39,201 bases of DNA from the NCBI GenBank assembly GCA_003990765.1, contig RBNJ01000149.1:1-39201 (forward strand), written 5' to 3'. The stretch is from Jimgerdemannia flammicorona. Lineage: Eukaryota. Shown in pieces: positions 7,127-34,348 of the stretch. The position numbers and the translations under genes are program-made. Each line of letters begins with the position of its first letter. Position 1 is the stretch's first letter. The notes beneath the pieces are model-generated. The model saw only the letters and a list, made by a program, of their open reading frames with translations, was not told the DNA's origin and made no database searches.

Positions 7127-8362
7127 TATTACATAGTGGTTACTAAGTTCTTTAAATATATCAAATTCTCTTCAAAGTGTATCTCTTAGACTAACTCAAG
7201 TTTGTTATAAGCAAGTTCTTATGGAAGTACCTTCCCAAGGTCTTATAGTCCTCAAACTTCTTATCTTTAAACTATCTTATTATCTCTTTAGATTACTTAC
7301 AAGGAATTGTATATATATATTACACTAAGTAGACTGACTTTATTTCAGAGAAAATAAGAGGGGTATTTATACAAAATATAATTCAATAGTTGCTAAGATA
7401 TAAAGCTAAATATAAATTCCAATAACTGAAATAAAATACCAGGATATGGAAAACTACTAAGTTCCAGTATCAGTACTGATGGTTGCACAGATTCAGGATG
7501 TTGGTATAATTTTAGTGATATAGGAAAATGGTATTGGAATAATTCTGAGTCACATCAGAATATCAGTGGAGGAACAGCTGTTACACAGGAAAAGAGTGCT
7601 AGTATAATTCAGTATAACTAAGGAACTTAGAGCAGAATGTTCAAGACTATAGAGGCTTCATCCTCATCAGAGGTCAGGATGTCTTTGAAGGAGATGAGAT
7701 CTATGAATGTCTCATCTATCTCATCATCATATAAGTCATATGTTTTACATATGTTGTGCAGGATGATATCATTGCTGATGATGTCATCATGTTTGGTGGT
7801 GGCAGGAACAAGGAAGTCTGGGGGCTCTCTAGTCTATGAGGTTCTCTTCTATGAAATAGGGGACAAATGTGGGGTTTTGGAGAGGTCTAACCTAGATACT
7901 TGGGCCTTGAAATACTGAGATCAATTCTTACAGGAATTGGTCTGGGTTGTTCTGAAGGATGAGATACCAGAAGTCTTCTACTTCATCACTATTAAGGGTG
8001 ATAGTAGACTGGGCTTCTGTAGCCACCCTGGCTTCTAGTGCATTGATATAGTGGGCTGACAGGTCTCTGAAGTCTGAGACTCTAATATACTCTAAGTTGG
8101 GAATCAACTATAATGTATGTCTGAAGATCTGATGAATCTTCTTAGCTGTTCTTATTTCATATATATTCATAAGAGTGGTATCTTATAACTCTTGAGGGCT
8201 GGCCTGTGGGAACTCCCAGTAGAGAAGGTTTCCTATTTTATACTCTTGCCATATTTAGAGACATTTGGTAGCAATAGTGATTCTTGTTTCTATTTTATAG
8301 TGGTAGAGGATAAAGTGATAAGGATCTGCAGTACCCAGGTTGATACTAGGAGATCTTCTTGT
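7127..8362 (-). repeat. Family B LTR fragment (diverged subfamily) containing the 3' two-thirds of the LTR ORF (7627-8362)
   Basis: Same-orientation homology to 17377-18563 and 24614-25791; begins TATTACATAGTGGT (= TGTCACATAGTGGT); other end missing. Confidence 0.88.
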
Positions 8363-8825
8363 GGACTTAAATAGATCTGAACATATAAGAACTTCTGAAC
8401 ACTTCTCCACAATATCTCTTTATATAACTACTCCTAGTATAGCAATATTATAAATAGCAAATAAATCTATTTAATAACTTACAAACTACTCTTAAGTAAA
8501 TCTGCAATCTGTTAGATCCCACTCCTAACTATATCATGAAATTTCCTAATTAGATATTGTCTGCAACAATACACTAATTTAACTAAGCTGGTCTTAGTTT
8601 CTTGAACTTTCTGAAATACAGAAAATCCTGAATATCCAAAACTAGTCTAAAAAAGAACTTTGATTGAGACATCAATCTAATCTTGAAATCAATAAGTATA
8701 GAGAATATACTCTATATGAAATTGATCTTGACCTTAAGAAAATGGTCTTTCAGAATATCCAGAACTTCCAGAAACCTCTTTCAGAACTATATAATGATAC
8801 TTTTATAAATAACTCTCTTATAACT

Positions 8826-8861: not shown

Positions 8862-11800
8862 ATGCTTTCTTACTCTACTATAAACCTCTATGAGAAATTT
8901 CTATAAGTTGGTATAAAGCCCAACCTCTGAACTGGAATTTATTCTGAACCATCTGATAATCCAGAAAGAATTGAACCTGATATATAAGGATAATTTGACT
9001 TCCACACTTATAACAAGTGGGATGGACTTCAACTACAAAAAGAAGTACTCTAATTAAATCAGTAAATAGGCAAAACTCTATATACCAAACTTCTTACTCT
9101 ATACCCCACAAGTCAAAATGAAGAAGATCTTATAAAAGTCTTCTTTACTCTTCTCAATAAGAGTTTTGTTAGCTCTATAAACCCAAGTAATCTAGGATAA
9201 CCAGTAGCTATCTTTCTAGCCTTAATTCCCCACAAAGCCTGAGCCTCAGTAGCTAAGTAGCACAACTCTATTAACTATTACTATATCAGAACCAAGACTG
9301 CCTTATTACTACTGTTTCCAGAATTATAAGATCTGCTATATTCTTAAAGAAGAAGTCAGAGAAATTCTTTATCAATAACCTGACTCTGAACCAGAAGTAG
9401 GCTCAGCTACAGCCCTATCTGAAACTGAAATCAATACTGAACCAGAACCAGCTTTTGAATTAAGCTCATCTGAAATCCAATATACAACTAATACTATCTA
9501 CTTCAATACTAAGCAAACTCAATCACATGGAACCAGAGTGAAGAGGAGAAGAAGTATTTTAGTGAATTCAATCTCAGATATACTACTGAAAGAGACATAT
9601 CTCTCTCAGAACAAAATACACCTACAGGATAACAAACAGTTATCTATCAAGCCCTTATACCAGATCTACAACAATTACTCCAGCAACTTATACAGACTCA
9701 AAGAACACCACTATACTCTGTACCAGTATCTCAAGTCATACCAGTAATATCACTATTAGTAGTCTAATCATCTTCAGTAAACAATATGGCAAATTAATAG
9801 ATTCTAGACCTCACAGCTCAGGTAGCCATAATGATAGCAACTATTACTACCTTAGCTTGACAGATCTGACCAATAAAAAGTCTGAGCCTACTTATCTTCA
9901 ATAGTGCTACACAGGAAGTCCAAAGCTTCATTAGTATAGTTGATATCAATTTTAAAGCCAATCAATAGACTAATGAGTAAGTTGCTGACCACCTTCTGAT
10001 AAACAATCAAGACCATACTTTGGAACAACTCTTTACTATCACTATGGCTTATATCTACCAAGTTGTTACATTCTTCTGAGGATCTACTAAAGAATAGTGA
10101 TGAATTCTTTCTGAAAAATCCCTTACATAGGATACCTGACCTACAGTTATTGCCCAAAATGCAACAAATAATACCTCTGGATATAGAGACCATCCTGCAG
10201 CCCCTGGGCTCAAATAGCTCAATATTACAGTAAAACTCTAATTGCTTAATCCTAAGTTAAACTCTATAATCTCAAATTTGATGTATATAGCAAAGAGGAA
10301 TTCAAAACCTTCTATACAAAACTGGAGTCACTCCTGAACACTGTTGGCCTAGGATACATTACCAATGATGAAGCACAAAATGGTACAAGAGCAGACCATT
10401 TATTCAACATACTATCTGAATAGCTTACAAGAAAGATCTAAGAACAAAGATACCCAGTTGATTGTGATTACCAATAATAGTATCTGATAAGAATCAAAAC
10501 TATGGTCAAGTAAATTCTAATAGCTGGACCAATTCTACCTGGAAGATAATTCAACAACAAGAAAAAAACTTGAACCAAGAAAGAAGAACCCAAGCATAAA
10601 GCATTCTGAGCTCTCTCTATATCTATCTTCTGGACATCTCAAAATCCTGAACTCACCTAGCTAAATACCTTCAAGAAACTCACTAAGAAGAAAGAAACAA
10701 ACTTTGAAGCAGAGTATGCTTTTATTGCTAAAAGACAGGACACATGGCCAGTGTCTGTCTCAACCAAAAACCCCAAACAGCAATATGAGCAACTGTTACT
10801 ACTCTGCATTGTCTCAACAATCTGATCACTAAGATATTAGACTTTATCAAGTTAAGACCAACTGCCATAGCCCCAACTAAAGGAAGTCAAAAGGCAGCTA
10901 GATATGATCTATATATAGCTAAAAAAGCTACAGTTTCCAACTAAGTTAAGTAAGTTTATATAGAGATCAGTATTCAAATTCCTGAAGGATATATTGAAAG
11001 AATATACTATTATAGCAGCCTAGTATTAAAAGGACTCTCAGTAAAAGGAGGAGTTATTGATCAAATTATATAGACAAAATAATTATCCTCATTCAAAACT
11101 ATAGCTGGACACTATTTAAGATTCTTATTGGTTTTTGTATTGCTCAGATCTTATTTAAAAAAATTGAGTTGACTCTGACAATCAAGAAAGTTCCTAAACT
11201 ACTGTCTACTATCTGAGGATCCAAAGGATTTGACTCATCAAACAAGACTCTAGCCCAAACTACTATGAATAAGAAAGAATAATTCTACAAGAAAATTAAA
11301 GATAGATTTGTACCTAGTGGTTGATGCCCCTATGTAGTATTGGAATGTACTTTTTCTGAATAATCAATAATTACTTCTCTTATATCAATGAACTGACTCA
11401 AAGGAGAACTAATAGAAGGAAAGTTCTTATAACTGAAATAACTACTATTGGATTAGACAAACTGCTTACACTCCAAGCTTTTGTCAATAGAGCACCTATT
11501 AAGATTAATATATATAGATAGTAGTACCTCAGGTAACTTCATCAATAAAGAAATAGCCAACAGACTCAAGGTCCTGATCTCTCCAGTACAACAGACTCAA
11601 ATAGTTGCTACTCAAACAGTTGCTACAGCTGATAGAACCTCTTATATTATTAGCAAGGAAGTCCACAACCTACTCTTATGAATTGGCAACTACTGAGTAT
11701 ATATTATACTCTAAATTATACTACTTCCTGACAACAAAATTATTCTTGAGACTCTATGGTTAAAACAAGAGAACCTTATGATCAATTAGATAAACTATTC

Positions 11801-14800
11801 TCTGATCATTAATAAAGGATGCCACAATTTCAAACTATAAGACAAAAGGGACCTACTCAATTCTAGTAATATAGGACCAAAGATCATCTACATCAACAAA
11901 CTACAACTCAAGAAATTAGCCAAGAAATGCCCTCTCTTTACTATCTCTATCTGACCATCTAAAGGAGAACTCAAGAATAATGAAGAAGACTTTTCCAAAG
12001 TTAATAGTTGTATTAGACCCCTACTTCAGAAGTTCTAAGATATATTTCCAAAGAAACTTCTAAAAGACCTACCATCTAAATAAGCAGTAGACCATACCAT
12101 CAAAACTATCCCAGATACCAAGTCTGCCTTCAAGTCAATCTACTACATATCTCTGAGAGAAATTAATATACTCAAGAAAGAAATTAATGAACTCCTAGAA
12201 TAAGGATTCATTAGATCTAGTATATTACTATATAGTATATTAGTCCTTATTGTTATCAAGAAAAGAAAAGATCTACAAATATGTATAGACTATTATGACT
12301 TCAATGAGCAAACTATCAAGAACTGCTGCCCACTATTCTGAATTGATGAAATATTCAATAGACTTACCAACCTACAGTTTATGAGCTCTTTTGACCTATA
12401 AAATAACTATTGGCAAATTACTATAAAGGAAGAAGACATCTACAAAACTGCCTTCTGAATCTGCTATAGATATTTTGAGTATCTGGTTATGTCTTTTAGC
12501 TTAACTAATACTTCTAAAATCTTCCAGATACTGATGAATACCATCCTACACCTATATCTAGATAAATTTATTATTGTCTACATTGATAACATTCTAGTCT
12601 TCAGCAAAACTCTAGAGAAATATCTCAAACATCTTAAACTAGTACTACTGAAGCTTTGAAAAAACTGACTCTTTGCAAAACTCAGCAAATGTGAATTCCT
12701 CCTGAAGGAAATTCAATTCCTTAGACACATTATTACTCTTAATGAAATCAAAGTAGACTCTAGCAAAATCTCTGCAATCAAGGATTAGCCTAGATCTAAG
12801 AAGCTAAAAGACCTCTAGTTATTCCTGAGACTAGCAAACTATTATCAGTGATTTGTTGCAAACTTTGCCAAGATTGCTACTACTCTTACTCAAATGACTA
12901 AGTACAGTAAAAAAGAAAAATAGTCCTGGACCACAAAGCAAGAGAAAGACTTTAACAATCTTATAAATTAGGAATCTGAACAAGATACAGCCTTTCAAGC
13001 CCTAAAGGATACCTTGATAATCACTTCAATACTTTAAGCAGCAAACTCTATCCTACTATATAAAGTTACCACTAATATCTCTGATCTAGTTCTTGAAGCA
13101 GTACTTATATAGGAAGGACACCCTGTGATCTATTATTCTCACAAGTTCAATGATGCCAAAATCAACTATACAACTCATGAGAAGGAGATGTTAGCTATCA
13201 TAGATACTCTAATCAAATGGCAACTATATCTTAAAGGAGTACACTTTACTATTTTAACAGACTACAAATCATTAGTTAACATCAAGATCCAGACTACCCT
13301 TTTCTGAAAGCAAGCCAGATGGATGAAAGTTCTCACCAACTTTGACTATGAAATCCAGTATCACCCTAGTAAGAAAAATATTGTTATGATATAATCTCCA
13401 GATCACTAATTGAAAAAGTTATCCAAACCCTCACCTTGGTTATCAACTCCATCATAGAATAAATTATTATAGTATGCACTAATGATAAAAAAGCTCAAGC
13501 ACTCCAAGAAATCCTGAGCAGTGATGATATTGATAAGTATACCTGGTACTATCAATACCAACTAAAGGACAATGCCATCTACTATAAGAACAGATTGTAT
13601 GTTCCTAACAATCAAGATCTCTGAAGGACTATCCTATTTAAATGTTATGATATCTCTACAGCCAGATATTTAGGATTTGACAAATGCTATAAAGTTATTT
13701 CCCAAAACTTCTACTGACCCTATATAGCAGATCAGCTAAAGACCTACATTACCTCCTATGATACCTACCAATACAACAAGTTCTCAACACTAGCAAAACC
13801 TGGCCTACTCTACTCTATTCTAGTACCATCTGCCAATTGGAAACAAATCTCTATAGACTTCATTGTATAACTATCCTGAACCAAGAATAGAAAAGATACA
13901 ATTGTTGTCTTTATAAACTATCTTAGCAAACAAGCATACTTTGTATCTACTGCTATAACTGTAATAACATCTGAAATCACTATACTTTTATTTGACAATA
14001 TCTTCTACTATCATGGTCTTTCTAAGATTATTATTAGTAACCAAAATCCAAAGTTTACCAGCTACTTTTGGAAAGCTCTTCATACATATATATCTTAGAA
14101 TGAAACTTATACTATCTACAACCTTTTACTCTAAAACTAATGGCCAAACTGAAAGAATGAACTAAACTCTAGAATAAATACTAAGGAACTATATTTCTTA
14201 TAGACAAGATAATTAGTATGAATACCTCACTACAGTCAAGTTTGCCTATAATAATAGTAAATAAGTCTCTCTTAAAATGACCCCATTCTTTGCCAATATA
14301 GAATAAAATCCAAACACCCCTCTGATACTAATCAGAACTATTGATGAACTCTCTACTGTCAAAGTTATGAAAGAATTCTTACTCTGAATATATAACTTAA
14401 GCCAGATTGCAATTGAGAATTTATCTTGAGCTTAAGAACAATAGTCATAGTATATCAACCAGCACTATTAAGAAGAAACTTTTAATATTGAAGAAAAAGT
14501 TCTACTAGATATCAGAGGATATTAAGTTGACAACCTCAAGTACAGATTCTCTATAAAGCTGAATAGCAAATTCATTGGACCATTTGAAGTTATTGCATAA
14601 GTTTCTCCAACTTTCTATAAATTGGCACTATTAGATATTATTAAGATTTACCTAGTCTTTAATGTCTAACATCTCAAGTAATATAATAAAAATGATAATA
14701 AGCTATTCTTGAACTAAACTACAAAACCACCTGCACCTATCATTATTAATGACTAATAAGAATATAAAGTTGAACAAATCCTCAATAAATGTAACCACAA

Positions 14801-14924
14801 GAACCACCCAAAATATCTTATCAAATGGAAAAGTTATCTGATCTATAATATAATATGGAAACTCAAAACTAATCTCTAGAATACCACTGACTTAGTTTAA
14901 GAATATGATTCTTTAAATAACTAA
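8862..14924 (+). pseudogene. gag-pol: Degenerate single-frame gag-pol of A1
   Basis: CFYC*KTGHMASVC knuckle (~10717-10758); protease IDSSTSGNFI (~11514); RT motifs ICIDYY*LN, FGLTN-like and VYIDNILVFS (~12576); RNase H YTTHEKEMLAII and FTILTDYKSL; integrase IDFIV*L and KTNGQTERMN; chromodomain EYKVEQILNK...YLIKWKSY (14760-14910). Confidence 0.9.
10835..11240 (+). pseudogene. dut: dUTPase domain of family A, between Gag zinc knuckle and protease
   Basis: FIKLRPTAIAPTKGSQKAARYDLY (motif 1), SSL (motif 2), GGVID (motif 3), IAQI (motif 4), *GSKGFDSS (motif 5, RGxxGFGSS); in frame with the knuckle. Confidence 0.88.
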
Positions 14925-15366
14925 AACTTGAACACTCCAGTATTTATTAATCCATACTATATATTACCTCTCTTGAATATTAAGTACTCTTATAATTATC
15001 ATAAATAAAATCAGAAACTCAGTAAGTTAAGATAAAAGAATACTGATTCTCTAGAAAAATAGCAAAACTGAAAGCCAGCCTATTCTCCCTATACTACTAG
15101 TGGAAAATGAGATATAGATATTCAAGAAGATCCTTTAGAGGAAATTCTCCAGCAGTAAATAATATCAGAATTACTTCTAGCATATAGTATTAAATACATG
15201 ACTCTTTAATATATGAATCTAATATATTAGGCAACTATACTATGAGTATGCTACTTTCTGAGAAAAATGAACATTACCAGACTTTTGACAATTCAAATAA
15301 TATAACAATACTAGACTAAAATTAGAAGACCTCAATGAGAATGTCAAAAGCTAAGAAGAGAAGAGT

Positions 15367-17102
15367 TATAAGTATACAACATCTAAGCCACTGAAATCAC
15401 ATGTCACTCTCAGAACAAATCTAGAAATTATATGTAAGATCATAAAGCTGAGTCAAACCAAAGTTACAGAGTACAAAGTTGAGTCAACTCAAAGTCACAG
15501 AATATAAGAATTATATAAATAGAACTTTATTACTTAGGACTGAATACATATATACCAAGTACTCAAATATATCAAAACAGAGAACTGCAATAAACTAAAC
15601 AAATAACTATAACTCTTGAACATATATACAACTATGACTACCAAGATCTACAACTACATCTATACTGATATTTAGAATGCTATTATCAACTAAGCCATAC
15701 CTCTTCTGCCCCTCATGAATATCCATAGCCTGATATCTTTCTACTTCATGAAAGCCTACTAAAATACTCTGAACATACTCAGCAAAGCCTACTAAATTAG
15801 ACAAATCTCAAGCTACTACTAGATCAACTGCCTTCTAGAAGATATGGTTAAACACTACATGATACAGATATTATCTAGATATCTTAATATCAGAAACTCA
15901 TTATCTATAAATACTAAGAACTTTTTTATAAGTATAGTACCTTTATTCTCTACCTCTAAGTTATTACTACAAAAATAGTTGCCACTCTATCCTATAGCCA
16001 AATTGATGATATGGTACAAGAACTCAACCACAAGTACATTAAGTATATTCAAACTATAGACAGAACCTTCTCACACTCTGATGACTATATTCTGTAAATG
16101 CTCTAAGTAAGATATGCTATAAAGGACATCTATAATATAATTTAGTTTAATAATAATAAAATAGAAGATAATGATCCCTCTGATACCAACATAACCTCTA
16201 GCCAAAGATCCCTGCCAGCTCTGATCACTCTACTAATCTTACTAATGAACTTACAATAGTTCATAACCACTTATAAGACCTATTGGAATAATGACCACTG
16301 GTATAAATATCAACTCACATTTACATCCAACTACTTTAACTATAATGAGGAGACTGGAGAATACAATCTGTACCTCCAGACAATCCTCAAGATCAAATCA
16401 ACAACTCTATCTCCTGAGTATAAATAAAATGAACTACAGCTATCAGCATACTACAACTCTATAACTCATAGTACTATTATCTATAGAAGGTATGCAGATA
16501 GTAAATCTGATGAAAGTGAAGATGATATACTTCTTCTCTATCTACTAATACTTTACCCAGTATATAAGACAGATAATGCCATCTTATGAGATAGTGATAT
16601 AGTTCTAACCTACTACTACATAAATGAATAAGGAGACATAATTCAAGAACTACTCTTCTTAGATAACTACTTTATCAGAGATAATATTATCAATAGTGAT
16701 CTTATTAAAAACTATTTAGATAGCATCTAAATCTATAGATAGCTTAGCAGTTATTAGTATAGTTAGATTAACCTTATATGATATAACTGTATACTGACTC
16801 AGCAGTCAGATGATCTCTTGATATATCAGTTTACACTTATACTATATGACTATATTCTAACTCAATAAAATACTAAGTACTATATCTATAATTAGCATAG
16901 TTCAGATAGTCTTTAATTAGTATAAATACCCTCTCTCCCAGACCTCAGAAACTCAGACTCAAATATATCCAAATATGTAAGAACTTCTGAACACTTCTCT
17001 ACAATATCTCTTCACATAACTACTCCTAGTATAATAATATTATAAATAGTAAATAAATCTATTTAATAACCCACAAACTACTCTTAAGTAAATCTGTATC
17101 CC
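15367..17102 (+). repeat. 3' LTR of A1 (last ~310 bp displaced by A2 insertion)
   Basis: Follows purine tract AAGAAGAGAAGAG (15353-15365); begins TATAAG (TGTAAG in copy A2), the inverted repeat of the CTTACA end; TATA box at 16921. Confidence 0.88.
15634..16730 (+). pseudogene. Unknown ~365-aa ORF inside the family A LTR (U3)
   Basis: ATG 15634 to TAA 16730 with one frameshift near 15855; internal stops are one transition from Q/R/W codons and several are sense codons in the other copy (26541-27639). Confidence 0.75.
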
Positions 17103-17376
17103 TGTAAGAGAGTTATTTATTAAGGTAACTATTACATAATTCTAGAAGAGTTTTCTGGAAGTTCTGGATATTCTGGAAGACTATTTTCTTTAGATCAAGA
17201 TCAATTTTATATAGAGTATATTCTTTATGCTTATTGATTTCAAGATTGGGTTGATGTCTCAATCAAAGTCCTTTTTCAGACTAGTTCTGGATGTTCAGAA
17301 TTTTCTATATTTCAAGAAGTTTAAGAAACTAAGACCAGCTTAGTTGAATTGGTATATCATTGCAGATAATATCTAA

Positions 17377-18905
17377 TGTCACATAGTGGTCGCTGAGTTC
17401 TTCAAATACATCAGATTCTCTTCAAGGTGTATCTCTTAGACTAACTCAAGTTTGTTATAAGCAAGTTCTTATTGGAGTGCCTTCCCAAGATCTTATAGTC
17501 CTCAAACTTCTTATCTTTAAACTGTCTTGTTATCTCTTAGATTGCTTGCAAGGAATTGTGTGTATTGCACTGAGAGGAACTAACTTTATTTCAGAGGAAA
17601 TAAGAGGGGTATTTATACAAAATATAATTCAATGGTTGCTAAGATATAAAGCTAAATATAAATTCCAATAACTAAAACTACTAAGTTCTAGAGTCGGTAC
17701 TGATGGTTGTACAGGTTCAGGATACTGGTATAATTCAGTATCACATCAGAATACCAGAGCTGGAACAATTTCGCATCACCTCAGAATGCCAGTACTGGCA
17801 TTATCCAGTGTTATATGAGAATACCGATACTGGCATTATCTAGTGTAACAAAGAACTTAGAGCAGAAAGTTCAGAATCATAGAGACTTCATCCTTATCAT
17901 TACTGAAGGAGATAAGATCTGCAAACTCATTATATAGGTTACACATTTCACATATGTCACATGGGATGATATCATTGCCAATGACATCATCACATTTGGC
18001 AGGGAAATCGGGAACAAGATCTGGAGCTCTCCAGTCTATGAGGTTCTCTTCCACAAAGTAAGAAACAAATATGGAGTCTTGGGGAGGTCTAACCTGGATG
18101 CTTGGGCCTTAGAATACTGAGATCAATCCTTGCAGGAATTGGTCTGGGTTGTTCTGAAGGATGGGGTGCCAGAAGTCTTCTACTTTATCACTATTGAGAG
18201 TGATAGTGGACTGGGCTTCTGTAGCCACCCTGGCTTCTAGTACATTGATATGGTGGGATAACAGGTCTCTGAAATCTGAGACTCTAATATACTCCAAGTT
18301 GGGAATCAATCATGGTACATACCTGAAGATCTGATGGATCTTCTTAGCTGTCCTCATTTCACATATATCCATGGGAGTAGTATCTTGTAGCTCTTGAGTG
18401 CTGGCCTGTGGGAACTTCCAGCAGAGGAGGTTTCCTATTTCATACTCCTGCTATATTTGGAGGCATTCAGTAGTAATGATGATCCTTGTTTCCATTTCAC
18501 AGTAGTAGAGGATGAAGTGATAGAGGTCTGCAGTACCCAGGTTGACACTAGGAGTCCTTCTTGAGCAGGTCCCCATGGCTCTTCTGATGTCTTGGAATAT
18601 TCTTTCCTCGATTAAGGTGCCTTGGTGGTTCCTTGACCTTGAGGTTTGGTGGGCAGCAGGCATTTCATTTGTGGTAAGTCTTTGAGCTATTTTGGGATTG
18701 GTGGTTCTTGTTGGTTGCTGCTACTGCAGTTCCTCAATCCTTCTTTTATATTCTTCAGGATGCTTATACTATAGTCACAATGACTCACAGTTGGTCATCA
18801 TTGCTCATCTCATATGCCATATGATCTTCTTGTGCTCTGATCTGGTGGCTTGCAAGGAAAGGCTGTCTCCTGTGCTGATGTCATCATTCTGGGGTCACCA
18901 TTACA
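17377..18905 (-). repeat. 3' LTR of element B (1529 bp)
   Basis: Minus strand begins TGTAATGGTGACC after a short purine-rich tract (AGAAGAACGA) and ends ATGTGACA; TATAAATACCCC at ~17607-17618. Confidence 0.93.
17857..18663 (-). pseudogene. Unknown 268-aa ORF wholly inside the family B LTR (ORF4)
   Basis: ORF-track pieces 18451-18663, 18109-18309 and 17857-18054 are all in one frame, separated by three stops; in the other LTR two of these positions are TGG and CAA. Confidence 0.85.
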
Positions 18906-19207
18906 TCGTTCTTCTAAATAAGGATCTTTTTGAGCATCCTTATTCATTGGTCCAGTCCTGAAAAAATTGCTGATCCCATAACCTCTGGCAAGGGGTTGAA
19001 AAGTGGTGTTTATGGACTGGCATCTTCTCTTTGTATTTTGGCATAATGGTGAAGGGTTGCTCCTTTCATATAGAGCAAGGGCCTGATTCTGATCTTGATC
19101 AATCAGTTGACAGTTTGAACTCCTCTGACTTCGAAAGTCTCATGGATGAGTAGTTGCTAGTATCATATCCCTTAGAGAATGGTCTAGACAGATAGCCTGC
19201 TAGTCAT
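18665..19207 (-). pseudogene. Putative unknown 180-aa ORF spanning the PPT/LTR boundary of element B (ORF3)
   Basis: ATG 19207 to TGA 18665 is exactly 181 codons and ends 1 nt before the ORF4 ATG. It has many internal TGA/TAA/TAG (roughly 15), each one transition from R/Q/W codons; at least one TAA is CAA in the 5' LTR. Confidence 0.5.
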
Positions 19208-19260
19208 GAGACATGCTGTTATGATTCATGGACTAGAACCTCGCAGGTGGTCATCATGTT

Positions 19261-20466
19261 TTACTTCTCTTATATAGGTTTGTGGTACTTCTTGAGTCTG
19301 TTCCTATATACTGTAGTAGGCAGTATGGTCCCTGAGATTTTTCTAAGCCAGAAGGTAGTTATCTTGATATCTTGCACATAGAAGAGTCCTTCCCATTTGG
19401 GCTCCAGTTTTCACAACCATGAGGCTTCTATCATATTTTGATATAGTAGAACCTTTTCTCCGATTCAGATGGGTTCTAGGGTCTTGTGATTCTTTTCTGC
19501 ATTCTTCCTTATCAGTACTTGTAACTTGGTGATATAATCTTCAGCCTTCTTCCTAATTTGGTGTAGTCTCCAGATTTCTACATCAATCTGTCTCCAAGTT
19601 AGGTCTAGATTTATAGCTGAGGTTCCATCAGAATCTTCTTCTCTGAAGAGTAGCTCCCTTGGGGTAAAGTGTATACTCTGTGACCATATGTCTTATAGGA
19701 CAGAGAGGGTGGTTGGGAGATAGTTATCCCAATTCTCATATGTCTCTGAGATCTTCACTAGAATGTTCTTAAGAGTCTTATTGGTTCTCTCTATCTGTCC
19801 ATTTTCTTGAGAGTGGTATGCAGTGGTCTTGATGTGCTAGATCTTGTATTTCTGATACATTATCTCATAGAATCCATTGACAAATTCTGTGCTATAGTCT
19901 GTTGTGATTTGCTTTGGTGTCTTGTAGCAGCAGATGATTTCTCAGTACAGGAAGTTGGCTATAGAGAGGGCATTGGCTTCTTGTAATGCTCCTGCCTCTA
20001 TCTATTTAGTAAAGAGGTCTACAATAACTATAATATAGCAGTTTCCTGATAGTGTTACTGGTAGTAGTCCAATGATATCTATTGCGATGTGGTGGAAGGG
20101 GATAGGCTCAATTCTTGATGACCTGGATGCCTAGTCTTGCTAATCTTGTTTCTGTTTTTGGCACTTGTCACACCCTTTGATAAATTGGTGCAGGTCTTCT
20201 TCCATCTTGGGCCACTACATGGTTCTTCTTGCCTTATCATATATATTGATTCCTCCTAGGTGTCCTTACTCATATACTTCCTTCATTACTTGATACTTCT
20301 TGTGTTCAGGTATTACTAGCTTTCCTCCTTTTCTGAGTATAGTGTTGTCTAGTTCAAACTGTTTCCAAGTCCAGTTGATGATGGTGATTATCCAGAGTTC
20401 AAGGTGGTTGGGCATCTTCTGCTGCCCAAGATAGCTGATTAATCCATAGTATAGCTCCTTATTCAT
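19261..20466 (-). pseudogene. int: Integrase of element B (zinc-binding HHCC remnant, DDE core, GPF-like module; no chromodomain)
   Basis: GHLGG...WPKM...CDKCQ, IAIDIIGLLP, IVIVDLFTK, ITTDYSTEF, TTAYHSQENGQIERTNK, KLEPKWEGLF; 402 codons without net frameshift. Confidence 0.9.
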
Positions 20467-23400
20467 GTTGAATAGTCTTGATGGGGGTGTTTCAGGATGT
20501 TATTGAGAGTGCATTGGTATTGGTGTTGGTCTTTCCTGAGTGGTGCTTGATGGTACAGTCATACTATTGTAGCCTGTAGATCTATCTGGCATATATTTCT
20601 TTGGAGTTCAGAGTGTGGAATAGCTAGGCAAGAGTGGAATGGTCTGTTTGAATGGTGAAGTATTTCCCAGCTAGGTAGTAGTGGAACTTGTCTACTGCCC
20701 AAACTACTACTAAGCATTCGAGCTTGCATGACTCGTAGTTCTGTTCTGCTCTGCAGGTACCTCAGCTTGTATAAGAGATGACATATTCATGTCCATCTTT
20801 CTTCTGAGCTAGGACTGCTCCAAGTCCTATAGTACTTGTATCTGTCTGTAGGATAAATTCTAGGTTCCAATCTGGTCTTCTGAGGATAGGTGCTTGGGTC
20901 AACCTGGTCTTGAGTTTATTGAAGATTTCTTGGCGCTCTTTGGTCCATTCAAATTTGGTCTCCTTCTTCAGTAGCTCATAGATAGGTGCTACAATGTTGG
21001 AGTATCTTTTGATAAATCTTCTGTAGTAGCTGGCCAGTCCAAGGAAGGTGTGGACTTCTGTGATTGTTCTGGATCTTGGGTAGGCTACAACAGCCTCGAT
21101 CTTCATAGGGTCTGTGTGGATTCTGGTCTGATTGATGAGGTGTTCTAGATAGGTGATTTCTTGAGCTGCAAACTTACATTTCTTAGGCTTAATGTAGAGG
21201 CCATGTTTCTTGAGCTTCTTGAGGGCTAGCTGTATGTGATTGACATATTCCTGTGCATTGTTGCTGAAGATGATCACATCATTAATATAGACAAAGAGCT
21301 ATTTTCCAATCTCATTGCTGAAGACTCTGTTCATCATTCACTGAAAACTTGCAGGGGCATTGCACATTCCAAATGGCATTTGCAGATAGATATAGGTGGC
21401 ATTAGATATAATGAAGGCTGATTTCTCACTGGTATCTTGAGTGAGACCAATCTGATGGAAGCCTGAGAACAGATCCAAGGTGGTGTAGTATTTGGCTTCG
21501 CTTCCAAAAGTAGTAAGAATTTCTTGAATATTTGGTAAGAGTTGTCTATCCTTCTTGGTGATAGCATTGAGTTTCCTATAGTCAATGCAGAGTCTTGGCA
21601 CAAACTCTCTAGGCTTGCTTCCTTTCTTTAGAGCAAGGATAATGGGTGAGGCCCAGGGGCTGATAGCTTGCTTGATGATTCTGGCTTCTTCCATTTCCTT
21701 GAGTTCTGCTCACAGCCATTCTCTATAGGCAGGTGGTATGGGTCTGGCTTTCTGGTAGATGGGCTTGGTATCACCAGTATCAACTTCATGGTAGTACTTG
21801 AGTTCTTGATTGTAGATATCCCTGAAGTCTGTAGCAAGTACTCCTTCATTCTAATGCAGGATCTTGAGAAGTTGTTCCTCTAGAGGAAAGTTTTTTCCAA
21901 TAGTGTATGTATGCTTGATCTGATCCTTATCTTTCTTATATTCAAGTTTGGTAATCTTGGTAGCAGTATAGACTCCTCTTCCAGTAGATCCAAAGCCTTA
22001 TTCTCCTCTCTTGGTCTTGATGTGTTTGATAGCTTCAATGATCTTGGGTTTCTTGACTTTGTAGATCAGTATCTGGCCAATCCTGTCATACTTCTTGACT
22101 TCGAATGGAGTGGTGGAGTTGTGATTTCTGACTATGAGAAAGATCTCACCAGTGTAATTAGGGTCAATTACTCCTCCTTCAACTGAGATTTTGCTTTTGG
22201 CCAGACTGCTCCTGGTCTTGATAATTCTGGTATGATTTTCTGGTAGCTTGACTCCAATTCCAGTGCCAAGTAGGGTGGTGGTCTGTGGTTCAAGGGTAGT
22301 ATCTTGAATGCTGGCAAGGTCCATTCCTATAGCTCCTTTAGTCTTGTATTCTGGGATCTTGGCTTTGGGGTGAAACTTCTTGACCTTGAGGGTGATGTCT
22401 GATTCTTGTTCCTCCTCATCATCACTGTCAGCTTGGAGCTCTGGGGTTTGGTCATCTTCTTTGGCTTTCCTTTTTGCTTCAGTGGCTTCTTGCTCATATT
22501 TCTATTGGTAGATTTTCCTGACTTCACTGATACAGGACCAGCAGTCATTCAGGTGTTTGGAGCAGTACATCCTAGTACTATGGGGCATCTCTCTTGAGGG
22601 ACATACCCATCAATGATCTTGTTATATGTACCACTGCTCATCTGTGAGCTTGGGTGTCTTGTTCTTGTTCATATTCTTATTTACCGAGTATATGAAGATC
22701 TCTGTGTCTTCTTCATCTCCTTCCTCTATGTCTGGTAGAACTCCTTTGTGAACATTGATAGAGACTCATACCTTTCTTCCTCTATAATTGATCTGCATCT
22801 TCTGGGCATTGAGGTCAATGATGGCCTTGACCTTGTGAAGTCATTGGTTGCTAATGAGGATATCATAGTTAGTGGCACTTGTGACAATCACATCTACTGA
22901 GATAGTAGCTCCTCCTATCTTGATGGAGACTTCTCAGATTTTGCCAAGGGGGGTAGCTCATGTACCATCTGCTATGATATAGACCATCTTTGTGGACTCT
23001 TCAATGTCTCAACCTAGGCAGTCAATTGCCTTCTTACTTATGAGGCATCCTCTAGCACCAGTATCAATGATGGCATCAAAGATACAGTCTTCAATCTAGC
23101 AGAGAGTATAGGCTGATGTCTTGCACTGGTCTTCGAATTCTTCACCTGAGTTCTCAGATTCTTCCTGTGCATTGTAAGCTTCTACAATCTTGTACTCTTG
23201 ATTCTTGGCAGTAGTTGTAAGTCCTACTCTCAACTGCTGTCTGAAGGCAGGGACTTCAGCTAGCTGTCCAAAGGTAGCATTGACCTTCTGTTCCTTGAGA
23301 TCCTTGTAGATATCATACTGGTGGATCTTGGTCTTGTGTAGCTTCTGTTCCTTCTTGCTTGCACTTTTTCCTGAGACTGGAGTAGTGCCTTCAATAATTT

Positions 23401-24487
23401 GGCAGGCAGCTTTATCTAACTCTATATCTTGATCAATCTCCTCAGGTTGGGTCTTGCCTTGAATAGTGACAGCTGGGGTCTTCTTTGGTCTTCCAACTGG
23501 CTTGCTATTGCTCTTCTTGTCATAGGGCTTGGACCAGGTTCTGGTATCTTCAGTAGTAGGGTAGAATTCAAGCTCCTCATAGTATTCTTCATTATCAGTG
23601 TCACCAATCTCCTTGATGACTACTGCATTGGTTTGTTCTCTGGTTCTGCTAGCATTGCTTGGTTGGGCCTTGCATCTTGTTTCAGTCATACAATTCTTTG
23701 CATAGTGGCCTTCTTCTCCACATCTGAAGTATATGATATTGCATTCTTCTATAGCAGCTGCAAATCTCTATACTGGTTTCCTGTTGGTGCTTTGGACTTC
23801 TCTAACAACATCACCAAGGTGTGCAGTCATCTTGGCAAACTGCTTGGCAAGTTCCTCCACTGGGTCAGCTTTGGCTGTCTTAGGGGTAGATGAGATTGGT
23901 TGTCTGTTTACAACTGTAGCAGGTATGATACTAGTTGACTTTGATGGCTCTATCTTGATGCCAGTTATTTTCTCCATTGAGTGTTCAGTAGAGTGTCTGG
24001 CAGTCCAATATCTCTGTACAAAGACCACTTTCTGATCAAGGGTCAGTATAGCTGAGATAGACTGGATTACTAGGGCAATTTCAGAGTGAACTCCTTTGAG
24101 GAAGGTTGAATCTACTATTTGTTCCTTGAGGTGGTCATCATAGCCAGCCAAGACAATCTGATAGCAGATTCAGATATAGAATGAGTTGGGATCTTCACTA
24201 AGTCCCTGGCAGATAGTATTAAGTTGATCCTTGAGAGCTTGCTTGATCTCTTCGGTATAATATGTTGTTCTGAGGAAGACCTTCATGTTAGTAAGTTTGG
24301 CTGCACCAGTATCAGCAATAGTGGCTGCATTGAACTTGTCTCTGGCAGGTTCTCTGAGGCTGACTAGTAGAAGGGCCAATTGAGCATCCACACCAAGAAC
24401 TCATATGGCAGCAAATTGTTCAAAGTCTTCAATGAAGGTCAGGATTGACTCTTCAGTAGTATATTCATAGAATGTGGGGGAGTGCAT
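20459..24487 (-). pseudogene. gag-pol: gag-PR-dUTPase-RT-RNase H of element B in one reading frame
   Basis: All minus-strand ORF-track pieces from 24619 to 21277 share a frame; knuckle (Y/C)FRCGEEGHYAKNC (~23690-23731), protease IIDTGA (~23055-23072), RT SPWASP, RLCIDYRKLN, LDLFSGFHQI, MPFGMCNAPASFQ, VYINDV, RNase H LQTDTSTIGLGAVL. Confidence 0.92.
21979..22390 (-). pseudogene. dut: dUTPase domain of family B, between protease and RT
   Basis: KKFHPKAKIPEYKTKGAIGMDL, TRSSLA, GGVIDPNYTGEI, DRIGQI, RGE*GFGSTG: all five trimeric dUTPase motifs. Confidence 0.95.
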
Positions 24488-24593
24488 TTCTATCTTATCT
24501 TGAATTCTTACAGGAGTGACTCTTGTAGTCAGGGTAGTTGTTGTGAGGGTTGTTTGTTTTTCAGCTTGAAAGTGAGAGATTTGTCTTAAATCA

Positions 24594-24610
24594 CCAGCCA
24601 GTGGGCACCA
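24594..24610 (-). promoter_or_regulatory. Primer-binding site of element B (tRNA identity undetermined)
   Basis: TGGTGCCCACTGGCTGG begins 3 nt (ACT) after the CA end of the 5' LTR. Confidence 0.65.
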
Positions 24611-24613
24611 AGT

Positions 24614-26133
24614 TGTCATATAGTAGTTGCTGAGTCCTTCAAATATGTCAGATTCTCTTCAAGGTATATCTCTTAGACTAACTCAAGTTTGTTATAAGCA
24701 AGTTCTTATTGGAGTGCCTTCTCAAGATCTTATAGTCCTCAAACTTCTTATCTTTAAACTGTCTTATTATCTCTTAGATTGCTTGCAAGGAATTGTGTGT
24801 ATTGCACTGGGAGGAACTGACTTTATTTCAGAGGAAATAAGAGGGGTATTTATACAAAATATAATTCAATAGTTGCTAAGATATAAAGCTAAATATAAAT
24901 TCCAATAACTAAAACTATTAAGTTTCAGGGTTGGTACTGATGGTTGTACAGGTTCAGGATGCTGGTATAATTTAGTATCATATTAGAATACCAGAGCTGG
25001 AACAATTTTGCATCACCTCAGAATGCCAGTACTGGCATTATCCAGTATTACATGAGAATACTGGTGCTGGCATTATCTAGTGTAACAAAGAACTTAGAGC
25101 AGAAAGTTCAGGATCATAGGGGCTTCATCCTCATCATCACTGAAGGAGATAAGATCTGTGAACTCATTGTGTAGGTCATACATTTCACATATGTCATGCA
25201 GGATGATGTCATCACCAATGACATTATCACATTCAGCAGAGAAATCAGGAACAAGATCTGGAGCTCTCCAGTCTATGAGGTTCTCTTCTACAAAGTAAGG
25301 AATATCTTGGGGAGGTTTAATCTGGATGCTTGGGCCTTGGAATACTAAGATCAATCCTTGCAGGAATTAGTCTGGGTTGTTCTGAAGGATGGGGTGTCAG
25401 AAGTCTTCTACTTCATCACTATTGAGAGTGATAGTGGACTGGGCTTCTGTAGCCACCCTGGCTTCTAGTGCATTGATATGGTGAGATGAAAGGTCTCTGA
25501 AATCTGAGACTCTAATATACTCCAAGTTGGGGATCGACTATGGTGCATGCCTGAAGATCTGATAGATCTTCTTAGCTGTCCTCATTTCATGTATATTCAT
25601 GGGAGTGGCATCTTGTAGCTCTTGAGTACTGGTCTGTGGGAACTCCCAGTAGAGGAGGTTTCCTATTTTATACTCCTGCCACATTTGGAGGCATTTGGTA
25701 GCAATGGTGATTCTTGTTTCCATTTTATGGTAGTAGAGAATAAAGTGATAGAGGTCTGCAGTACCCAGGTTGATACTATGAGTCCTTCTTGAGTGGGTCC
25801 CCATGGCTCTTCTGATGTCTTGGAACATTCTTTCCTCAACTAAAGTACTTTGGTGGTTCCTTGACCTTGAGGTTTGGTGGGCAGCAGGTATTTCATTTAT
25901 AGTAAGTCTTTGAGCTATTTTGGGATTGGTAGTTCTTGTTGGTTGCTGCTACTGCAGTTCTTTAATCCTTCTTTTATATTCTTCAGGATGCTTGTACTGT
26001 GGTCACAATGACTCACAGTTGATCATCACTGCTCATCTCGTATGCTGTATGATCTTCTTGTGCTCCAATCTGGTGACTTGCAAGGAAAGGCTGTCTCCTG
26101 TGCTAATGTCATCATTCTGGGGTCACTATTATA
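24614..26133 (-). repeat. 5' LTR of element B (1520 bp), with second copy of ORF4 (25094-25891, start decayed to ATA)
   Basis: Direct repeat of 17377-18905, differing mostly by transitions and one 9-bp in-frame deletion near 25300. Confidence 0.93.
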
Positions 26134-26540
26134 CTAATTAGGAAATTTCATAATGTAGTTAGGAGTGGAATCTAACAGGATACAGATTTACTTAAGAGTA
26201 ATTTGTGGGTTATTAAATAGGTTTATTTGCTATTTATAATATTACTATACTAGAAGTAGTTGTGTAAAGGAATATTATAGAGAAGTGTTCAGGAGTTGTA
26301 TTCAGAAGTCTTATCTCAGATTCTGAGGTCTGGGAGAGAGAGTATTTATACTAATGGGAGACTATCTGAACTATACTAAATATAGATATAGCACTTAGTG
26401 CCTTACTAAGTCAGAATATAGTCACATAGTATAAGTGTAAACTGATATATCAAGAGATCATCTGACTGCTGAGTCAGTATATAGTCATGTCATATAAGGC
26501 TAATCTAACTATACTAATGACTGCTAAGCTATCTATAGAT

Positions 26541-27639
26541 TTAGATGTTATCTGGGTAGTCTTCAATGATATCACTATTAATGATATTATCTTTGATAAA
26601 GTAGTCATCTAAAAAGAGTGGTTCTTGAATTACTTCTCCTTATTTGCTCAGATAATAATATATTAGGACCTTGTTACTATTCCACAAGATAGTATCATCT
26701 GTCTCATATACTGAATATAGAGTTAGTGGGCAAAAGGAGAGGTGTATCATCTTCACTTTTATTAGATTTGCTATCTGTATACCTTCTATAGGTTACAGTA
26801 CTGTATGTTGCTGAGTTGTAGTAAGCTGGCAGCTATACTTTATGTTACTCATACTCAGGTAGTGGAATTGTAGGTTCAATCTCAAGGATTGTCTGGAGGT
26901 ATAGATTGTATTCTCTAGTCTCTTCATTATAGTTGAAGTAATTGGAAGTGAATGTAGATTGATACTTATACTAGTGGTCATTATTTCAATAGGTCTTATA
27001 GGTAGTTATGAACTATTGTAAGTTTATTAATAATATTAGCAGAGTGATCAGGGCTGGCAGAGATCCTTGGCTAAAGATTATATTGGTATCAGAGGGATCA
27101 TTATCTTCTGCTTCATCATTATTGAACTAAATTATATTATAAACATCCTTTATGGTATATCCAACTTGAGGCATCTGCAGAATATAGTTATTGGAGTGTG
27201 GGAAGGTTCTGTCTGTAGTTTTAATATACTTGATATACTTGTGGTTGAGTTCTTATACCATATCATCAATTTGGCCATAGGACAGAGTGGTGACTATTTC
27301 AGTAGTGATAACTTAGAGGCAGGGAATAAAGGTGCTATACTTGTAGAAGAGTTCTTGGTATTTGTGAACAATGAGTTTCTGATGTTAGAACATCTGGATA
27401 ATATTTATATTATGGTGATATTCAATCATATCTTCCAGGAGGTGGCCAATCTAGTAGTAGCTTGAGATTTGTTTAATTTGGTGGGCCTTGCTAAGCATAT
27501 TCAGGGTATTCTATCAGGCTTCTACAAAGTAGAGAGATACTAGGCTATAGATATTTATGAGAGGCAGAGGAAGTGTGGCTTGATTGACAATAGCATTCCA
27601 AATATCAGCACAGATATAATTATAGATCTCAGTAATCAT
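26541..27639 (-). pseudogene. Second copy of the family A LTR ORF
   Basis: MITEIYNYICADIWNAIVNQATLPLP...IIEDYPDNI*; colinear with 15634-16730; one frameshift near 26730. Confidence 0.75.
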
Positions 27640-28347
27640 ACATAGTTGTAGGTATATTCAAGAGTTGTTGTTATTTGTTTTGTTTGTTGTGGTTCTTTGT
27701 TTTGATATATCTGAGTACTTGATATATATATATTCAGTCCTGATTGGTAAGGTTTTGTTTGTATAAATCTTATATTCTGTAACTTTAAGTTGACTCAGCT
27801 TTATGCTCTGTAACTTTAGTTTGACTCAGCTTTGTAATCTTATATATGATTTCTAGATTTAATCTGAGGGTGATATGTAAATTCAATGGCTTGGAGGTTA
27901 TATACTTACAACTCTCTCCTTCTTAGCTTTCAACATTCTCATCAAGCTCTTCTAATTTTAGTCTAGTATTATTATACTATTTGGATAATTAAAAGTCTAG
28001 TAATGTTCATTTTTCTCAGAAAGTAGTATACTTATAGTACAGTTGCCTAATATATTGGATTCATATATTAAAGAGTCATGTATTTGATACTATGTACCAA
28101 AAGTGATTCTGATGTCATTTAAGAATTTCCTCTAAGAAATCTTCTTAAATAACTATACCTTATTTCCTACCAGTGGTATGGGGAGAATAGACTGACTTTC
28201 AGTTTTACTATTTTTCTAAAGAGTTGGTATTCTTTTGTCTTGTCTTGCTGAGTTCTTGATTTTATTCATAATAATTATAAGGGTACTTAATATTTATAAG
28301 AAGTAGTATATAGTATAAGACTGATAGGTGTTGGAATACTTGGGTTT

Positions 28348-31300: not shown

Positions 31301-32120
31301 TCCTTTGGATGGGCAGATAGAGATAGCAAAGAGAGAGTATTTTTTGGCCAATTTCTTGAGTTGTAGCTTGTTGATGTAGGTGATCTTTGGGCCAGAATCA
31401 CTAGAACTGAGTAGGTCTTTTTTGTCTTGTAGTTTAAAGTTGTGGCATCCTTTCTTGATAGTCAGAAAATGGTTTACCCAATCAATTATCAGGTTTTCTT
31501 ATTTTAACCATAGGATCTTAAGGATTATTTTATTGTAATAAAGGATTATTTTATTGTCAGAAAGTAGTATGATCTGGAGTGTAATATGTACTTAGTAGTC
31601 ACTAATTTTGAAGGATAGGCTGCAGACTTTCTTGCTAATGATATGGGAGATTTCATCAACTATGGCAACTACTTGAATCTGTTATACCAGAGAGATCAGA
31701 ACCTTAAGTATGTTGGCTGTTTCTTTATTGATAAAGTTATCTGAGACACTGCTGTCTATTATTATCTTGATAGATGCTCTATTGACAAAAGCTCAGAGTG
31801 TAAGCAGTTTGTCTGATCTAATGATAGTGATTTTGGTTATAAGAGCTTTCCTTCTATTAGTTCTTCTTTGGGTCAGTTTATTGATATAAGAGAAGCAATC
31901 ATTGATTATTTAGGAAGAGTACATTCTAATACCATAGAGGTATCAGCCATTTGGTACAAATCCATCTTTAATTTTCTTGTAGAATTGTTCTTCCTTATTT
32001 ATAGCAGATTGAGCTGGGGCCTTATTTGATGAGCCAAATTCTCTGGATTCTTGAATAGTAGGTAGTAGTTCAGAGACTTCCTTGATTATTAGGGTTGACT
32101 CAATTTTCTCAAATAGGATC
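28348..32120 (-). pseudogene. pol: Degenerate pol of A2 (dUTPase C-terminal remnant, PR, RT, RNase H, integrase, chromodomain)
   Basis: Reverse complement of ~11146-14924; [31 protein letters not shown] motifs. Confidence 0.9.
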
Positions 32121-32287
32121 TGGTTCAGTATTGATTTCAGTTTCAGATAGAGCTATAATTGGGCCTACTTCTGGTTTAGAGTCAGATAGTTGATGAAGGA
32201 TTTCTCATCTTTCTCTGGTAATATTCAGGTTACACAATCTTTTGGCAACACTTTCAACACAGTTTCTGGAGAAAAGCTACTAGTATC

Positions 32288-34318: not shown

Positions 34319-34348
34319 GGATTGATTGAGAACAAACCATATTTCATT

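Follow-up and report, generated by a model that had tools for sequence, protein, structure and literature searches.

The long terminal repeats (LTRs) of retrotransposons are regarded as supplying a promoter and a terminator and as being non-coding. Among complex retroviruses, accessory open reading frames (ORFs) lie in or overlap the U3 part of the LTR, as do sag of mouse mammary tumor virus (MMTV), nef of the human and simian immunodeficiency viruses (HIV/SIV) and bel2 of foamy viruses; MMTV sag is called the "LTR ORF", and its product, Sag, a membrane glycoprotein, acts on the immunity of the host. Here we describe a 39,201-nt stretch of DNA from Jimgerdemannia flammicorona (positions 1 to 39,201 of the forward strand of contig RBNJ01000149.1, GenBank assembly GCA_003990765.1; hereafter the window), in which a decayed Ty3/gypsy-type element carries, in the U3 of each LTR, a sense frame of 265 to 268 codons. 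Comparison with relatives outside the window makes it very probable that this frame is a real, selected, LTR-borne gene that is dead in this window.

Further points of comparison come from foamy viruses, plants and fungi. According to PMC3798896, the foamy-virus protein Tas has 209–300 amino acids and its own TATA-containing internal promoter, possesses a DNA-binding part at its N-terminus and an acidic activation domain at its C-terminus, and activates its own promoter first and the LTR next, which amounts to positive feedback. Plant Ty3/gypsy elements carry additional ORFs (aORFs), such as the antisense TRP28 of Retand and env-like ORFs, that are conserved and of unknown or regulatory function; these sit internally, upstream of gag or in the interval from pol to the 3' LTR, and are in many cases antisense (PMC7264820 and PMC11963269). 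Some fungal Ty3/gypsy elements, from Postia placenta, Phanerochaete chrysosporium and Tuber melanosporum, have a dUTPase between protease and reverse transcriptase (RT), and the legend of Figure 3 in the same source lists an "add. ORF" of unknown function (PMC2864245). No report of an ORF inside a Ty3/gypsy LTR was found in full-text literature searches, subscription-only papers, figures and supplements lying outside the scope of that search, and the aORF review PMC7264820 contained no occurrence of "in/within/inside the LTR".

The frame was assembled from four pieces of the minus-strand ORF track (18451–18720, 18310–18450, 18109–18309 and 17857–18108), which proved to be a single frame of 268 codons with three internal stops; the joining of fragments into one frame had been proposed in the first-pass annotation, a reading of this DNA from its letters alone. 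The LTRs concerned and the copies of the gene are as follows:

17377..18905, minus strand: 3' LTR, 1529 nt; opens TGTAATGG after a purine-rich tract and closes GTGACA (blastn self-comparison and reading of the ends)
24614..26133, minus strand: 5' LTR, 1520 nt; closes GTGACA at 24614 (blastn self-comparison)
7131..8361, minus strand: third LTR copy, older, 5'-truncated, 79% identical (blastn self-comparison)
17857..18663, minus strand: LTR gene, 3' LTR copy; 268 codons plus the terminal stop (17857–17859), ATG at 18663, stops at codons 71, 118 and 185
25094..25891, minus strand: LTR gene, 5' LTR copy; 265 codons, ATG lost, 9-nt in-frame deletion near 25305, stops at codons 118, 165 and 175
7630..8362, minus strand: LTR gene, third and older copy; begins at about codon 34, +1 frameshift at 7824, in-frame insertions of +15 and +12

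The two LTRs of the element form a direct repeat (17377–18903 versus 24614–26131) with 91.4% identity over 1527 nt in the blastn self-comparison. Since the frame of the 3' LTR begins 242 nt from the start of the LTR and stops 238 nt short of a TATA box at 17619–17604 (TATA-2 below), it lies wholly in U3, and the coordinates agree with the annotated placement in sense to the element and upstream of the TATA box. This sense ORF, situated between the LTR start (18905) and TATA-2 (17619), was present in both LTRs and not in the internal region. Within the ORF stretch there were three stops in frame versus 9–25 in the five other frames and 14.5 expected from base composition, and 4 of 10,000 shuffles had three stops or fewer. 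All three window copies share the stop at codon 118; at the other two stop positions of the 3' LTR copy, the TGG and CAA sense codons named beforehand were indeed found in the 5' LTR copy.

The indels differed in length between the ORF and the rest of the LTR. Among the copies, the ORF indels measured 9, 15, 12 and 1 nt, three of the four being multiples of three, whereas none of the eight in the non-coding LTR part downstream was (1, 1, 4, 2, 22, 1, 4 and 1 nt); by our own arithmetic, the chance that all three multiples of three among these 12 indels fall among the four of the ORF is 4/220. The frame-preserving events were found as described earlier, namely the 9-nt deletion at about 25305 and, in the third copy, the insertions of +15 at 7723–7709 and +12 at 7681–7670. 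The wider statement that the frame is kept across three LTR copies was too strong: the third copy has the +1 shift at 7824, is covered by tblastn in two frames (−3, then −1) and is without about its first 33 codons. The 5' LTR copy, for its part, has lost its ATG and is interrupted three times, at codons 118, 165 and 175.

Relatives were sought by a word-seeded search of 5.8 billion proteins, a full hidden Markov model (HMM) scan of 1.84 billion cluster representatives and a profile-seeded word search. The word-seeded search yielded five relatives among 229 candidates, the HMM scan six proteins of 138–342 aa with the same architecture and with identity to one member, P0004, down to 20–28%, and the profile-seeded search eight relatives among 4500 candidates. 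The relatives from the word-seeded search include P0004, a full-length, intact protein of 271 aa that is 68% identical to the window gene, and P0003, also intact, which has 247 aa and is 76% identical. Altogether 12 distinct relatives outside the window were recognized, including the metagenome locus L001, and all were stop-free as stored, with intact ORFs of 247–342 aa among them; all came from short metagenome-type contigs, and their naming went no further than "hypothetical protein". Among the 1.84 billion representatives there was no longer host or transposon protein that contained the domain; as no relative is embedded in a longer protein, the frame is not a piece of a host gene or of a protein from a different transposon.

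Searches of viral and genome contigs gave no additional DNA relatives, and the metagenome scan gave the single locus L001, a 1345-nt contig with an open frame of 343 codons in which the other frames reach at most 94 aa. From a conserved Met-Pro-Ala start its product has 323 aa and is 54% identical to the window copies. In a Nei-Gojobori comparison of the window with L001 (261–264 codons), pN was 0.29–0.30, pS 0.68 and dN/dS 0.21. A sliding codon grid served as a control: over the ungapped core, pN/pS was 0.37–0.38 in the proposed frame versus 0.98–1.40 in the two shifted frames, and the differences in that core fell 72/47/97 on codon positions 1/2/3. By blastn, the likeness between L001 and the window LTR was confined to the ORF (68%) and the 16-nt TATA-2; a motif search and MAFFT alignments added an upstream TATA box (TATA-1 below) and a TTAGC repeat, and the remaining flank could not be aligned.

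These comparisons indicate a gene family under purifying selection in its live members and, as judged from the databases searched, a new, small and unnamed protein family with intact members elsewhere. The earlier proposal of a real accessory gene of unknown family in U3 is thereby upheld, through the intact relatives, the pN/pS contrast, the indel lengths and the absence of a larger containing protein from the representatives scanned. The first-pass annotation had also named findings that would speak against such a gene, namely a dN/dS near 1 with random indel lengths, stops fixed in a consensus, or origin as a piece of an unrelated transposon or host gene. What was found instead was a dN/dS of 0.21 with three of the four ORF indels being multiples of three, intact natural relatives (used in place of a consensus), and six HMM matches all of 138–342 aa.

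Several observations weigh against this view of the frame. The relative DNA is that of L001 alone, and this contig runs from TATA-1 to 115 nt past TATA-2, short of the LTR ends and of gag-pol; the other 11 relatives are known as proteins, and the LTR setting is seen for the window copies. The dN/dS of 0.21 comes from one deep comparison in which the synonymous sites are saturated (pS 0.68) and the window copies carry post-insertion damage. Between the 3' and 5' LTRs the differences at codon positions 1/2/3 were 33/18/27, and divergence was 9.7% in the ORF part versus 7.5% and 5.6% in the flanking LTR parts, so that the three window copies, taken alone, show no constraint. Absence of constraint should be expected of dead copies, and all three window copies are pseudogenes. 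Because they are unconstrained among themselves, the evidence for selection comes from the relatives outside the window.

The manner in which the window copies died can be read from the substitutions. Transitions between the two LTRs numbered 120, of which 81 were at a C before an A, versus 2 transversions, and 12 adjacent TG/CA pairs point to former CpG sites mutated independently in both LTRs. The observed/expected ratio of CpG was 0.06–0.07 in the element and in the whole window, and 0.0 at 9000–17000. Eleven public runs, soil metagenomes among them and none listed as RNA, shared words with the window, each at most 0.24 of the words, and four runs (X1, X2, X4 and X11) provided thousands of short DNA contigs of the family. 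Compared with the window, the run contigs showed about 260–280 A>G and 170–200 T>C places versus 105–205 G>A and 78–150 C>T, with A or T of the window mostly replaced by G or C. A single transition separates each stop of the two LTR copies from a sense codon of the sister LTR or of the relatives. Repeat-targeted cytosine deamination, whether methylation-driven or like repeat-induced point mutation (RIP), killed the window copies. Because the LTR differences reflect hypermutation (120:2), LTR divergence is unusable as a clock, and dating of the insertion by this means was rejected.

The LTR also contains conserved signals on either side of the gene:

18743..18753, minus strand: TATA-1, the 11-mer GAATATAAAAG, 87 nt before the ATG; also at 25971–25981 (5' LTR) and at L001 1–11
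17604..17619, minus strand: TATA-2, the 16-nt TGTATAAATACCCCTC; also at 24841–24856, at 7358–7373 and at L001 1216–1231
17585..17590, minus strand: AATAAA, the sole one in the LTR, 13 nt after the end of TATA-2; also at 24822–24827
17638..17655, minus strand: TTAGC-N8-TTAGC direct repeat, just upstream of TATA-2, kept in L001 amid unalignable DNA
18781..18787, minus strand: TGAGTCA motif, upstream of TATA-1 in the window LTRs
18876–18883, minus strand: TGACATCA motif, upstream of TATA-1 in the window LTRs

The layout common to both lineages consists of TATA-1, a leader of 65–87 nt, the Met-Pro-Ala start, the ORF, a spacer of 176–238 nt, TATA-2 and a single AATAAA. In L001, TATA-1 stands 65 nt before the ATG and is followed by a similar leader and ATG context, and the AATAAA, at 1244, follows TATA-2 at a spacing of 12 nt. 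The 16-nt TATA-2 has three matches in the window versus 0 expected and is the presumed promoter of the genomic RNA, and the TTAGC direct repeat next to it is a candidate response element. The 11-mer of TATA-1 has two matches in the window versus 0.10 expected. From this arrangement, the gene apparently has its own promoter.

Upstream of TATA-1, the TGAGTCA motif is presumably an AP-1/Gcn4-type site, and we take TGACATCA to be a site like the cAMP response element (CRE), perhaps a decayed TGACGTCA; the L001 contig stops short of the region that holds them. Together the two motifs hint at a predicted stress-responsive upstream promoter. A further observation concerns the spacer between the ORF stop and TATA-2 (17688–17768, minus strand), in which 36 or 79 nt are absent from contigs of X4 and X11 (joints from 17688 to 17725 or 17768); the number of a CCAG..GG.ATTCTGA-like unit seems to vary among copies, and no tandem array was called in this spacer by Tandem Repeats Finder (TRF).

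As in the first-pass annotation, no domain was recognized in the protein, the Pfam, PDB profile and Foldseek searches having given no match of note. Pfam gave no family at E up to 10 for either window copy and, for ten family members at E up to 1, nothing other than ATG5_HBR, a match in two of the ten (E=0.088) that was taken as chance. The family profile had no match among PDB sequences at E up to 10. For P0004, the ESM Atlas gave no meaningful neighbours, its own model having a predicted local distance difference test score (pLDDT) of 0.35 and its best feature score of 0.83 being at chance level.

An AlphaFold model built on an alignment of ten sequences reached a mean pLDDT of 62.9 and displayed (i) a helical core at pLDDT 82–91 (residues about 50–160), (ii) a less certain helix-and-strand part extending to about residue 215, and (iii) a disordered tail at 31–36. 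A second model, of P0013 (41% identical to the first), reproduced the succession of helices and strands with the tail again disordered, the tail values across the two models being 26–36. Foldseek against PDB and BFVD gave best E-values of 0.37 and 0.067, and wide VIA-align searches with the two models gave best Z values of 3.8 and 4.2, far under the tool's noise guide for helical proteins. Helix-turn-helix rows of the ParB/SopB/VirB type, obtained with the first model (Z 3.0–3.4), were below noise level and were dropped because they did not recur with the second.

In sequence, the ten members are alike in lacking a long apolar run, and the protein is therefore not env-like or membrane-bound. 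The first 50 residues carry a net charge of +4 to +7 in the close members and include the stretch R-R-A-M-R-T-R-T-R-R. The tail has a net charge of −8 to −25 and is studded with Ile, Leu, Val and Phe; a motif F-x-D/N-L-I/L occurs in P0003, P0004, P0006, P0010, P0012 and both window copies, and L-N-F/I-x-L/I near the C-terminus in both window copies and in seven of the eight tails listed. Conservation is highest in residues 140–215, the acidic and hydrophobic middle. Motifs of the form hydrophobic-x-x-hydrophobic-hydrophobic in an acidic disordered stretch are a signature of acidic activation domains.

Because the gene lies entirely inside the LTR, every element carries two copies of it and every solo LTR one. 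We propose that TATA-1 would drive an mRNA of roughly 1.1 kb ending at the LTR's own poly(A) site, which would make each LTR, solo LTRs included, a self-contained transcription unit, and that TATA-2 would drive the genomic RNA. Given its closeness to the TATA box, the AATAAA is probably at or before the TATA-2 start site; in that position it would be ignored in the 5' LTR and have an effect solely in the 3' LTR and on the transcript from TATA-1.

As to what the protein does, a transactivator and an anti-silencing factor had been put forward in the first-pass annotation, and the acidic tail together with the gene's own TATA box makes us lean towards a transactivator. By analogy with foamy viruses, it may be a nuclear regulator of the element's own LTR, a Tas-like activator of the acidic type, and we offer this as a tentative assignment. 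In such a scheme the helical core of about 170 residues would target the protein and the disordered acidic tail would recruit the transcription machinery, giving a positive-feedback switch like that of foamy-virus Tas from its internal promoter. The fuller picture of a two-promoter LTR, in which a stress-type upstream TATA box drives the Tas-like activator and this in turn switches on the family's genomic promoters in trans, is a more doubtful proposition. It would have the consequence that reverse transcription duplicates the U3 gene and that solo LTRs left by recombination stay potential sources of activator, so that solo LTRs, and even elements that are dead, could go on supplying a positive-feedback switch spanning the family.

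Two explanations would deny the element a working gene of its own. A chance open frame in non-coding LTR DNA would accord with the stops in all window copies and with the lack of constraint among them, but so open a frame arose in 4 of 10,000 shuffles, intact homologs are found down to 20–28% identity, and the pN/pS contrast is specific to the proposed frame; together these leave that explanation a vanishingly small probability. We also consider it very improbable that the frame is a passenger, that is, a captured host gene fragment that sits in the LTR and renders no service to the element. Gene transduction is given as one origin of extra ORFs in LTR retrotransposons in PMC11963269, and the family is rare in protein databases; yet the 1.84 billion representatives hold no longer or cellular homolog (six matches, 138–342 aa), the ORF has stayed open and constrained at a divergence where most other LTR DNA cannot be aligned, and the positions of the start codon, the two TATA boxes and the poly(A) signal are maintained.

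Among readings that grant the gene a function, sequence evidence does not separate the activator from a counter-silencing factor or an RNA adaptor. Four points tell against the activator and its own promoter: a DNA-binding fold was not recognized in the PDB and BFVD searches, where a missing match does not exclude such a fold; two distant members, P0013 and P0015, lack the basic N-terminal patch and have net charges of 0 and −3 over their first 50 residues; acidic tails with hydrophobic motifs occur also in non-activators; and TATA-1 is an 11-mer in AT-rich DNA, its two matches being reached in 1 of 100 shuffles. VANC, a protein of the plant VANDAL21 transposons, is the comparison for a counter-silencing factor. 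A protein of this kind would shield the element from cytosine methylation, RIP-like mutation or RNA silencing, and such a countermeasure would pay, as repeats here come under very strong C-to-T attack (120:2, 81 of 120 at CpA, CpG observed/expected 0.06–0.07). The gene is under selection, moreover, and its acidic tail has Ile/Val pairs flanked by Asp, Ser or Thr that resemble SUMO-interaction motifs. We nevertheless judge this role unlikely: Pfam and fold searches gave no likeness to a silencing suppressor or a methylation-related domain, and all three window copies were hypermutated nevertheless. An adaptor for RNA handling, similar to Rev/Rem or to CERV of the Caenorhabditis elegans element Cer1, would bind RNA through the Arg-rich N-terminus and use a Leu-rich C-terminal motif for export or assembly. 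The basic stretch of the close members (R-R-A-M-R-T-R-T-R-R, net +4 to +7) suits such a role, as does the conserved C-terminal I/V-L-N-F-L-L, which resembles a leucine-rich export signal, and an LTR-retrotransposon protein required for genomic RNA export is known (PMC10309623). That the patch is missing from P0013 and P0015 (net 0 and −3), that conservation peaks at residues 140–215 and not at the N-terminus, and that no RNA-binding fold was found in the fold searches make the adaptor a decidedly unlikely candidate. The Tas-like activator stays the assignment towards which we lean.

The element that carries the gene extends over the following further features:

24610–24594, minus strand: primer-binding site TGGTGCCCACTGGCTGG, 3 nt past the 5' LTR
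18906..24613, minus strand: decayed internal region with gag, dUTPase, RT, RT/RNase H and integrase in that order
23096–23767, minus strand: gag with a CCHC knuckle (Pfam zf-CCHC, E=1.2e-4)
21998–22501, minus strand: dUTPase (PF00692, E=4.9e-23), after gag and before RT
21338–21709, minus strand: RT (RVT_1, E=4.6e-12)
20762–21298, minus strand: RT/RNase H (RT_RNaseH_2, E=5.4e-18)
about 19800–20310, minus strand: integrase H2C2 and core (Integrase_H2C2, E=7.3e-13; rve, E=1.4e-6, a match of 29 bits that is under its curated cut-off of 32.6)

The domain order is that of Ty3/gypsy elements. A purine-rich tract adjoins the start of the 3' LTR at 18905, and a 4-nt target-site duplication, TTAG, stands at both outer ends. 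The element is dead, with stops throughout the internal region, and the integrase reading has 21 stops in 520 codons. No Pfam match to a protease was obtained in the internal region, so that the dUTPase is placed between protease and RT by position alone; Pfam likewise detected no chromodomain in the element, and there is no env-like ORF in it, the distance from the integrase end to the LTR being only about 360 nt. In a search with the RT/RNase H region the best identity was at most 50%, and the named matches were scattered over plants, amphibians, Chara, a sponge and others. A frame of 109 codons at 18810–19139 (minus strand) leads out of the end of the internal region, crosses the purine tract and takes in the initial 95 nt of the LTR; it had no Pfam match and is probably open by chance.

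The surroundings of the element are themselves repetitive, and the finding sits in a nested cluster of decayed retroelements. Another repeat family forms an inverted repeat of roughly 6 kb (11145–17109 and 26171–32122) that has the element at its centre and arms that are 80–85% complementary; this repeat could be a foldback-like element or two head-to-head copies. Two public runs have contigs in which the flanks to the left and right of the element are directly joined (joints 17359/17371 to 26136), as would be seen at an empty site in further copies of this flanking repeat family. The third LTR copy is embedded in pieces of the same flanking family (6635–7128 and 8364–8820), in both orientations. 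Apart from these, the segment at 32000–38000 (plus strand) is GC-rich, with 51–54% versus 30–42% elsewhere and a GC skew of +0.35 to +0.52, and contains long open frames, two RVT_1 pieces among them; ORFs of 409 and 198 aa at 32492–34318 had no Pfam family match. This segment represents a retroelement of a different family that is either younger or less heavily mutated.

Annotation pipelines mask LTRs, and a gene inside one therefore goes unseen. With the present frame, a hallmark of complex retroviruses (sag, nef, tas/bel) is now met in a simple, env-less element of the Ty3/gypsy type. If the trans-activating two-promoter LTR is true, it would be the first regulatory accessory gene of the complex-retrovirus type in a Ty3/gypsy retrotransposon, and a solo LTR, usually seen as an inert scar, could remain the source of a protein acting in trans for its family. 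An ORF of about 270 codons in an LTR of about 1.5 kb would moreover be a compact system in which self-regulation or resistance to silencing under heavy repeat mutation could be approached.

Set beside the described systems, the carrier resembles the dUTPase-bearing fungal elements in having its dUTPase after gag and before RT, and is unlike them in an RT that is at most 50% identical to anything found and in the lack of a detected chromodomain. With the plant aORFs the gene shares the condition of an extra ORF common to diverged copies of a family; unlike them, it is in sense and wholly inside the LTR, and it has no TRP28 or other Pfam domain. No homology to Sag, Nef, Bel2/Bet or Tas was found by Pfam, PDB profile or fold searches, and the protein is at most a functional analogue of Sag, Nef, Bel and Tas. 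The likeness to MMTV sag is that of a sense accessory ORF in U3 that is duplicated with the LTR, whereas the protein, unlike Sag, has no long apolar run in the ten members and no Pfam match and belongs to another class of element. To foamy-virus tas (bel1) the gene corresponds in encoding a small protein (here 247–342 aa), in having its own TATA box and in the acidic C-terminal tail of its product; no similarity in sequence or fold was seen between them, and the carrier here is an env-less element of the Ty3/gypsy type. The foamy-virus promoter lies in env, with tas near the 3' end and upstream of the LTR, whereas here the presumed promoter and the gene are both inside U3.

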